Below are positions 36,922 through 38,285 of a DNA stretch of 38,285 nt, piece by piece. The notes under the pieces are model-generated. The model saw nothing but the letters and a program-made list of their open reading frames with translations. It was not told the DNA's origin and did not search any database. The stretch comes from a virus. Lineage: Duplodnaviria; Heunggongvirae; Uroviricota; Caudoviricetes. Every line of letters begins with the position of its first letter. Positions within the stretch are counted from its first letter, which is position 1. The translations under genes were made by a program, and so were the position numbers. The stretch is taken from IMG/VR virus record IMGVR_UViG_2645727978_000010. One strand, written 5' to 3'.

Positions 36922-37766
36922 TGGCGAAAAATGACTTTAAAGCGTTTGCAACTGATCGAAATGCCAATGTTATGTCGCAGGAGGAATGGGAAGCGTTGCC
37001 TGCGCTTTTATCCGGATTTACAGCAGGGAAAGCATCCAGTGCGCAGGTGAACAAAGCCATTCGACAGGCCAGCTTTATTGCTGCAGCTCTGGCCCAGTTT
37101 GTAAGTGACAAAACGCAACGGGATGTGCTTGATAATGGTGATCTGCCCGGTTTTGTTGAATTGCTGGGATCGGGGTTTGCTGTTGAATACCTGAGCCGCA
37201 AGAATCCGTTTGGCGATATCAAATCGGATGGCACTGTGCAAACGGCTCTCGAAAACCTTGGTTTGGGAGAAGGTTCTGCATTACCTGTTGGTGTGCCTGT
37301 TCCGTGGCCTTCAGTCACACCGCCAACAGGCTGGCTGAAATGCAACGGTGCGGCTTTTTCTGCTGAAGAATACCCGGAACTGGCAAAGGCTTACCCGACC
37401 AATAAATTGCCTGATTTACGCGGTGAATTTATTCGTGGCTGGGATGACGGTCGCGGGATTGATACTGGTCGCGCTTTGCTTAATTGGCAGCCACACACAA
37501 TTTTGGACCATGCACACTATATGGAATTATGGACAGGGGACGGACTCGCCGCAGGAAGTGCACGGGAAGGAGTAAACCCAGGAATACTGGCTACATACGG
37601 TGACGGGGGAATAGTTAAAACGGACGAACCCGGTCTTAATGTGCCTTCCTCACTACGAGCTATTAGCTCTCGTAGTGTTAAACGTTATGGTGAAATTAGT
37701 GAAAATGTAGGTACAGAAACTCGTCCTCGTAACATCGCTTTTAATTATATCGTAAGGGCCGCATGA
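36921..37766 (+). CDS. Tail fibre protein with phage tail-collar domain (281 aa)
   Basis: Track ORF 36903..37766 trimmed to ATG 36921 (TGATG overlap); C-terminal motif [42 protein letters not shown] matches the collar-domain signature (LPDLRG). Confidence 0.75.
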
Positions 37767-37861
37767 TGAATAAAGCTGTATTAAATAGCGAACTCATCAC
37801 CACAAAGGCGGGAGACATTACCGTTTACAATTATGATGGTGAGACACGGGAATATATGTAA
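37763..37861 (+). pseudogene. Truncated tail fibre assembly (Tfa-like) gene remnant, 32 codons
   Basis: ATGATG start overlapping fibre gene stop; ORF ends at a TAA supplied by the first bases of the IS66-type terminus (GTAAGCG at 37858). Confidence 0.4.
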
Positions 37862-38285
37862 GCGGCTCGTCAGAACCGTATTGATATTTACTGAGAGCTC
37901 AGATCAACTTTCCAGGGCAACAGATCGCGTACCCGGTTTGCCGGCCAGTCCTGGATATGTTCAATGACGTAGCGCAGCCACTTTTCTGGCTCCACATTGT
38001 TCAGACGGCATGTGCCGATCAGCGAGTACAACACCGCCGCATGTTCACCACCGCTGTCGGAACCCGCGAACATCCAGTTTTTCCGGCCTACGGCCACTCC
38101 CCGTAAGGCGTTCTCTGCGATGTTGTTGTCGATTTCCACCCAGCCATTACTGCAGTACACGTTCAGTGCATCCCACTGTTTCAGCAGGTATGCGAACGCT
38201 TTTGCCGTATCTGAGTGACGCGACAGTGTTTTCATCTGTTGCTGTATCCAGTCATACAGTGACTGCATCAGTGGCGCGGCTCTGG
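37858..38285 (-). mobile_element. IS66-family insertion sequence, partial (runs off window)
   Basis: Terminus begins GTAAGCGGCTCG at 37858 (IS66-family ends start GTAAGCG as I recall); transposase C-terminus encoded on minus strand immediately inside. Confidence 0.7.
37888..38285 (-). CDS. IS66-family transposase, C-terminal fragment (gene continues beyond window)
   Basis: Track ORF 37888..38268, reading frame open to window edge; motif [41 protein letters not shown] matches the conserved IS66 transposase C-terminus. Confidence 0.8.

Follow-up and report, generated by a model that had tools for sequence, protein, structure and literature searches.

Here we report that a myovirus-type prophage of E. 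coli carries a 2,699-bp insertion sequence (IS) of the IS66 family inside its tfaE-like tail fibre assembly gene. The structure as a whole is almost certainly explained by a simple insertion, which makes up one step in a stepwise decay of the prophage. The window, that is the whole stretch of 38,285 nucleotides that was analyzed, corresponds to contig JHRE01000142.1 of the short-read draft assembly GCA_001265335.1, and it ends inside the element because a short-read contig meets there a multi-copy IS. We compared the window with JHRE01000281.1, its partner contig in this assembly, and with a sister genome having the same insertion, represented by the 4.4-Mb contig UASE01000009.1 of an NCTC-type assembly.

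The tail fibre assembly gene is interrupted at codon 32

The features at the right end of the window are as follows.

36921-37766, plus strand: tail fibre gene, 281 aa from the PGAP start, with a constant N-terminal part followed by a Collar variable part
37763-37861, plus strand: truncated tfaE-like tail fibre assembly gene, made of 31 native codons, a hybrid Met codon and TAA (precomputed Pfam match Caudo_TAP_N)
37850-37857: target site GAATATAT, left copy of the 8-bp target-site duplication, which recurs beyond the other IS end
37858-38285, minus strand: tnpC-proximal end of the IS66-family IS, with 428 of 428 bases identical to known copies, running off the window
37888-38285, minus strand: 3' part of tnpC (DDE transposase, from its Pfam domains), comprising the last 131 codons and the stop at 37888-37890

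The tail fibre gene (Pfam Collar, 1e-14, and PHROG tail fibre families) is 100% identical to the WP_001096973.1 region of E. coli O103:H2 12009 and ends at 37766. The tfa stub starts at 37763 (ATGATG), is 32 codons long and encodes a peptide identical to the N-terminus of TfaE WP_001030532.1, located directly after the tail fibre gene. A first-pass annotation of this DNA had placed the end of the Tfa-like reading frame, after 32 codons, at an IS66-type terminus starting at 37858, and the junction agrees with this proposal to the base. The 100% match to the intact tfaE of O103:H2 12009 breaks off exactly at 37857, so that the identity breakpoints lie at 37857/37858. In codon 32 (ATG, 37856-37858), the first two bases come from the target and the third is base 1 of the IS; the stop codon TAA (37859-37861) is provided by IS bases 2 to 4. 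The stub is thus to be annotated as a pseudogene fragment and not as a small gene.

The intact tfaE homologue encodes 200 aa, with a Caudo_TAP domain at residues 78-199 and a match to phrog_105 ('tail fiber assembly'). When the IS and one octamer were removed in silico, a protein of 201 aa was restored, which possesses Caudo_TAP, matches phrog_105 (1.5e-100) and corresponds to the TfaE of O103:H2. The distal remainder of the gene is a GTG-initiated frame of 161 codons that keeps the Caudo_TAP domain and might still have some residual activity.

The inserted DNA is a three-gene IS66-family element

The first-pass annotation had also recognized a transposase C-terminus on the opposite strand, leaving the window at its end. 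In agreement, the minus-strand frame 37888-38283 matched DDE_Tnp_IS66 (5.5e-25, profile positions 205-283 of 284) and DDE_Tnp_IS66_C (6.5e-17). From its first base on, window segment 37858-38285 is 100% identical to IS66-family copies located in unrelated chromosomal and plasmid contexts. By contrast, the heptamer GTAAGCG occurs three times in the window versus 3.96 times expected by chance, and what identifies the element is therefore the identity over 428 bases, together with the protein domains, rather than the motif.

Beyond the window, the terminus at 37858 was found to belong to a full three-gene IS66-family element. The order tnpA-tnpB-tnpC was observed in JHRE01000281.1 and UASE01000009.1, with matches to TnpB_IS66 (4.7e-40) and, for TnpA, HTH_Tnp_1 (8.5e-15). 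The full TnpC of UASE01000009.1 has 523 aa and comprises DDE_Tnp_IS66 (1.1e-102) together with IS66_C, zf-IS66 and LZ_Tnp_IS66. The terminal repeat on the tnpC side, at 37858, starts with GTAAGCGGCTCGTCAGAACCGT and the tnpA-side end is GTAACCGGCTCATTTAAACCGT; these repeats (GTAAGCG... and GTAACCG...) are imperfectly inverted and share 16 of their first 22 bases.

This element is very common. Some match to the IS fragment was obtained in 2,778 of the 5,426 complete E. coli genomes, and the element is annotated, at 99-100% identity, in thousands of E. coli records under the PGAP label 'ISCro1 family'. As the ISCro1 described in ST131 measures 2,824 bp (PMC8764528), compared to 2,699 bp here, we use 'ISCro1 family' as a group name only. 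The exact 51-base IS end was restricted to Escherichia, Citrobacter and two contigs of 'Clostridiales' metagenome-assembled genomes (MAGs). One of these two contigs is exactly the 2,699-bp unit, standing alone, and the presence of the IS end in both is probably a binning or contamination artefact. In addition, approximately 50 contig ends of Escherichia sp. MOD1-EC7003 bear the exact IS end, which indicates a large expansion of the element in that genome.

Independent copies present the same anatomy. In FORC 064, yicI harbors a 2,699-bp copy with tnpA, tnpB and tnpC, for which the flanking 8-bp duplication is AAAAGCAA. Copies of 2,699 bp are likewise found in E. coli E7476 (5401-8098) and in Z1322HEC0009 (4980-7678), with the 8-bp duplications CATCATCA and ATTGATAC, respectively; these two are independent hits in other tfa genes, within unrelated YmfQ/Mu-like prophages. 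A target-site logo built from 52 copies exhibited a weak G-W-T-T-N-W pattern.

Both ends of the element are flanked by the same octamer

The first 98 bases of JHRE01000281.1 are identical to window 38188-38285. This contig then contains, in order, the rest of tnpC, tnpB, tnpA, the end ...GAGCCGGTTAC, the octamer GAATATAT (2370-2377) and the Tfa remainder. Joined to the window through this 98-base overlap, which lies inside a multi-copy repeat and is not a spanning read, it gives an IS of 2,699 bp with GAATATAT on both sides and a restorable Tfa. The same arrangement was observed in UASE01000009.1, where the IS occupies 10096-12794 (2,699 bp), is flanked by GAATATAT at 10088-10095 and 12795-12802, and is followed by the rest of tfa. 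In O103:H2 12009, the intact tfaE contains a single copy of the octamer. The other IS end, the 8-bp duplication and the distal Tfa sequence, which the first-pass annotation had proposed to look for to the right of the window, are consequently all in place in both contigs: a Tfa remainder exists and the terminus is a genuine IS66-family end.

These data bear directly on the possibility that the IS mediated a deletion or a rearrangement, by which the distal part of tfa and the sequence beyond it would have been lost or moved. The window alone, whose contig ends inside the IS, is compatible with such an event, and IS66-family copies are numerous in related genomes. However, the partner contig from the same assembly possesses the other IS end, GAATATAT and the exact continuation of Tfa, and the whole structure stands on one contig in the sister genome, which makes a deletion or rearrangement very improbable.

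The IS interior of JHRE01000281.1 differs from the copy in UASE01000009.1 at 25 positions, a pattern expected when several IS copies have been collapsed in an assembly. Positions 1-10523 of UASE01000009.1, aligned to window 27767-38285, present 12 gap openings (single-base indels) and 2 substitutions in 10.5 kb. The fragmentation of genes in UASE01000009.1 was considered as a sign of additional decay and rejected, as this contig differs from the window mainly by single-base indels, which are typical of long-read error.

The insertion lies in a mosaic prophage between yebY and pphA

Over positions 1-37272, the window is 99.94% identical to a prophage of FDAARGOS_1059, from which it differs by 4 substitutions, one 18-base repeat indel and two single-base indels. 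The 18-base difference is a run of AGAGGA repeats at window 7819-7836, within the open reading frame 7409-8221; it is absent in FDAARGOS_1059 and represents an in-frame change in repeat number. In FDAARGOS_1059, the prophage is located between yebY and pphA, with the integrase and excisionase genes upstream of the position corresponding to the window start.

The prophage is a mosaic of a Rac-like early region (recT, recE, kilR, ydaT, ydaV; window 1-18300) and a SEN34-like myovirus late region (window 18224-37857). The late region is shared with O103:H2 12009 (99.9%), where it is joined to another early region and located at another attachment site (yfhH-yfhL). At window 10882-12517, a convergent gene pair, annotated in the FDAARGOS_1059 prophage as 'sce7726 family protein' and 'beta family protein', is followed by a Hok/Gef toxin gene; the pair and the toxin gene may represent accessory or defence cargo. 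We also considered vB_EcoM-611R5 as a free-living relative and rejected it: its record includes yfhH and other host genes, and is therefore a prophage prediction that provides no evidence of viability.

The interrupted gene belongs to a Pin-invertible segment

A further feature is located inside the tail fibre gene.

37258-37273: left crossover repeat for Pin (e14 P-segment type), TTGGTTTGGGAGAAGG

This 16-mer is the published repeat of the invertible P segment of e14 (PMC5379014). Window 37253-37272 forms an inverted repeat with UASE01000009.1 14048-14067, 4.5 kb to the right, and the same window interval is the inversion breakpoint relative to FDAARGOS_1059. Between the crossover repeats, the window and UASE01000009.1 are inverted compared to FDAARGOS_1059 and to O111:H2 12A, and the breakpoints are located within the repeat. 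The segment contains two cassettes. The first consists of a Collar-type fibre C-terminus and the tfaE hit by the IS. The second lies on the opposite strand and encodes a gp53-like fibre C-terminus together with another Tfa, which is intact (147 aa). An adjacent gene encodes a Pin-type serine recombinase (Resolvase and HTH_7 domains); pin and the right repeat lie beyond the window.

Both orientations were observed among IS-bearing sequences: the segment is unflipped in the window and in UASE01000009.1, and flipped in EPEC S5274 and EPEC S6662. It is also flipped in a second contig (29.7 kb, indel-rich) of the assembly to which UASE01000009.1 belongs, with the same chromosomal flanks; it is conceivable that this contig stems from an additional copy of the locus and not from a less abundant orientation. 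The simplest reading of these orientations is that the segment kept inverting after the insertion.

The first-pass annotation had concluded that the tail fibre chaperone is disrupted. This holds for the gene itself, which is split by the IS, and has to be qualified for the prophage, since the Pin cassette contains a further, alternative chaperone gene. Therefore, the IS alone would remove one fibre state and not all of them. A broader proposition is that this host-range segment still flips at more than double its size, that the IS has turned a two-fibre switch into one alternating between a working pair and a chaperone-less fibre, and that the switch persists despite an IS100-like element between pin and its crossover site; we consider this as probable as its contrary. 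An IS located inside a DNA-inversion switch, apparently without stopping the inversion, is mildly instructive.

A baseplate nonsense codon preceded the insertion

A second lesion, also mentioned in the first-pass annotation as an argument for a defective or decaying prophage, affects a baseplate gene.

34692-35045, plus strand: baseplate wedge/sheath-initiator gene (phrog_120), 117 codons, interrupted by TGA at 34797-34799

This gene matched the 'baseplate wedge subunit' family (phrog_120, 4.4e-37), and some PGAP records name its homologue 'contractile injection system sheath initiator'. The interruption is real: the TGA derives from CGA (Arg36) by a single C to T change, which is the sole nucleotide difference in this gene from O103:H2 12009. 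PGAP reports an 'internal stop' in the same gene of FDAARGOS_1059 and O111:H2 12A. The gene is held by 318 complete genomes, and among the matches listed the TGA allele was present only in 12A and FDAARGOS_1059. These two genomes have the same prophage with an intact 200-aa tfaE and without the IS. As the TGA is common to these IS-free relatives, the nonsense codon came first and the IS second. The other late genes in the window have lengths equal to those of the reference prophages. The TGA would be expected to abolish tail assembly.

A third lesion was detected near pin. In JHRE01000281.1 (3662-3755), a contig of EPEC S6662 (1-95) and a Logan contig (1323-1348), the sequence changes into the terminus of a putative IS100-like (IS21-family) element at a point 19 bp past the right crossover repeat, which corresponds to 42 bp upstream of the start codon of pin. 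JHRE01000281.1 holds 94 bases of this end only, and hence one end of the element at this locus; they match, at every position, the istB-side terminus of other IS100-like copies, which are found elsewhere with 5-bp duplications (ATAAC/ACAAC). The IS100-like element is absent at this site from UASE01000009.1, FDAARGOS_1059 and 12A. A 12-base likeness between the region upstream of pin and the flanks of other IS100 copies was examined as a possible longer IS end and rejected, as it reflects the ATAAC/ACAAC target preference.

Overall, the view of a decaying prophage is reinforced, with IS-free relatives already bearing the TGA and a further, putative IS100-like insertion near pin. The three ordered lesions (nonsense codon, IS66-family element, IS100-like element) could be used to mark lineages in this E. 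coli group.

The order of the lesions also weighs on the idea that the insertion was kept because it is useful, either as an on/off switch of the fibre or by shielding the host against residual tailocin or phage activity. Both orientations of the segment exist after the insertion, and IS66-family elements have repeatedly hit other tfa genes, in independent events in different E. coli strains, as such a benefit would suppose. However, the wedge/sheath-initiator gene was broken before the IS arrived, and tails are therefore probably not made at all. Moreover, the allele exists only in a few closely related genomes, the target pattern of the IS is weak, and prophage genes, as non-essential DNA, are expected to be hit recurrently. 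A selected insertion thus seems highly unlikely, and we favor neutral decay as its probable nature.

The insertion allele is limited to a few related genomes

The junction between the tfa stub and the IS was identical in three independent assemblies, including that of the window, as found by exact look-up of the 32-aa stub. The right-hand junction, from the IS to the Tfa remainder, was matched in further read sets by exact look-up of the 161-aa remainder. By contrast, the tfa/IS junction was found in none of the 5,426 complete E. coli genomes. An exact search of one-genome-per-species contigs with a 41-base junction also gave no match, because base 8 of the IS is different in UASE01000009.1 (G/A) and the insertion is missing from the species representative. 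The allele is thus limited to a handful of closely related genomes. IS-bearing assemblies include EPEC S5274 and S6662 from Kenya (PMC4056304), and both IS-bearing assemblies traceable to a publication are EPEC.

An assembly chimera, with the contig end misextended into a repeat and tfa really intact, could be suspected from a short-read draft whose IS interior looks collapsed (25 variant positions), but it is hardly conceivable in view of the same junction in three independent assemblies, the right-hand junction in further read sets, and the presence of GAATATAT at both junctions, in line with the 8-bp duplication that transposition of an IS66-family element is expected to generate.

Discussion

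A simple insertion accounts for the structure as follows. In a myovirus-type E. coli prophage located between yebY and pphA, the 2,699-bp IS (tnpA-tnpB-tnpC, on the minus strand) almost certainly transposed into codon 32 of the tfaE-like gene, with duplication of the target GAATATAT and without deletion or rearrangement. This event left a stub of 32 codons and cut off the Caudo_TAP chaperone domain from its start. In the window orientation, the Collar-type fibre would then be expressed without its chaperone, and this fibre would probably be lost; after flipping, the fibre and the chaperone expressed would both be intact. Along the lineage, the wedge nonsense codon was followed by the IS66-family element and, in the genome of the window, later by the putative IS100-like element upstream of pin.

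Tail fibres of Mu, P2 and lambda require Tfa proteins. By analogy with these phages, we infer that the Collar-type fibre fails in the absence of TfaE.

Taken together, a known IS in a known type of gene of a decaying prophage is ordinary, already-known biology, and it has little importance beyond annotation. The three ORFs and the repeats of GTAAGCG type are also described for classic IS66 members (PMC12888890). With the IS66 family of Enterobacteriaceae (the ISCro1 group in PGAP naming), the element shares its genes, the GTAAGCG repeat, the 8-bp duplication and a size of about 2.7 kb, and no structural difference from this family was observed.

The inactivation of prophage genes by IS elements is known in pathogenic E. 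coli, for example with IS629 in O157 prophages. There, as here, a multi-copy IS is found in non-essential prophage genes and insertions accumulate along a clonal lineage; the IS families differ, being IS66 and IS21/IS100 in the present case.

The invertible segment is likewise close to the P segment of e14, with which it shares a 16-base repeat, an adjacent serine recombinase, a constant fibre N-terminus and two alternative C-termini in opposite orientations, each with its own tfa. The empty segment measures approximately 1.83 kb here, compared to 1,797 bp in e14. Unlike in e14, the segment is part of a SEN34-like myovirus late region, and the 2.7-kb IS stretches the distance from repeat to repeat to 4,537 bp.
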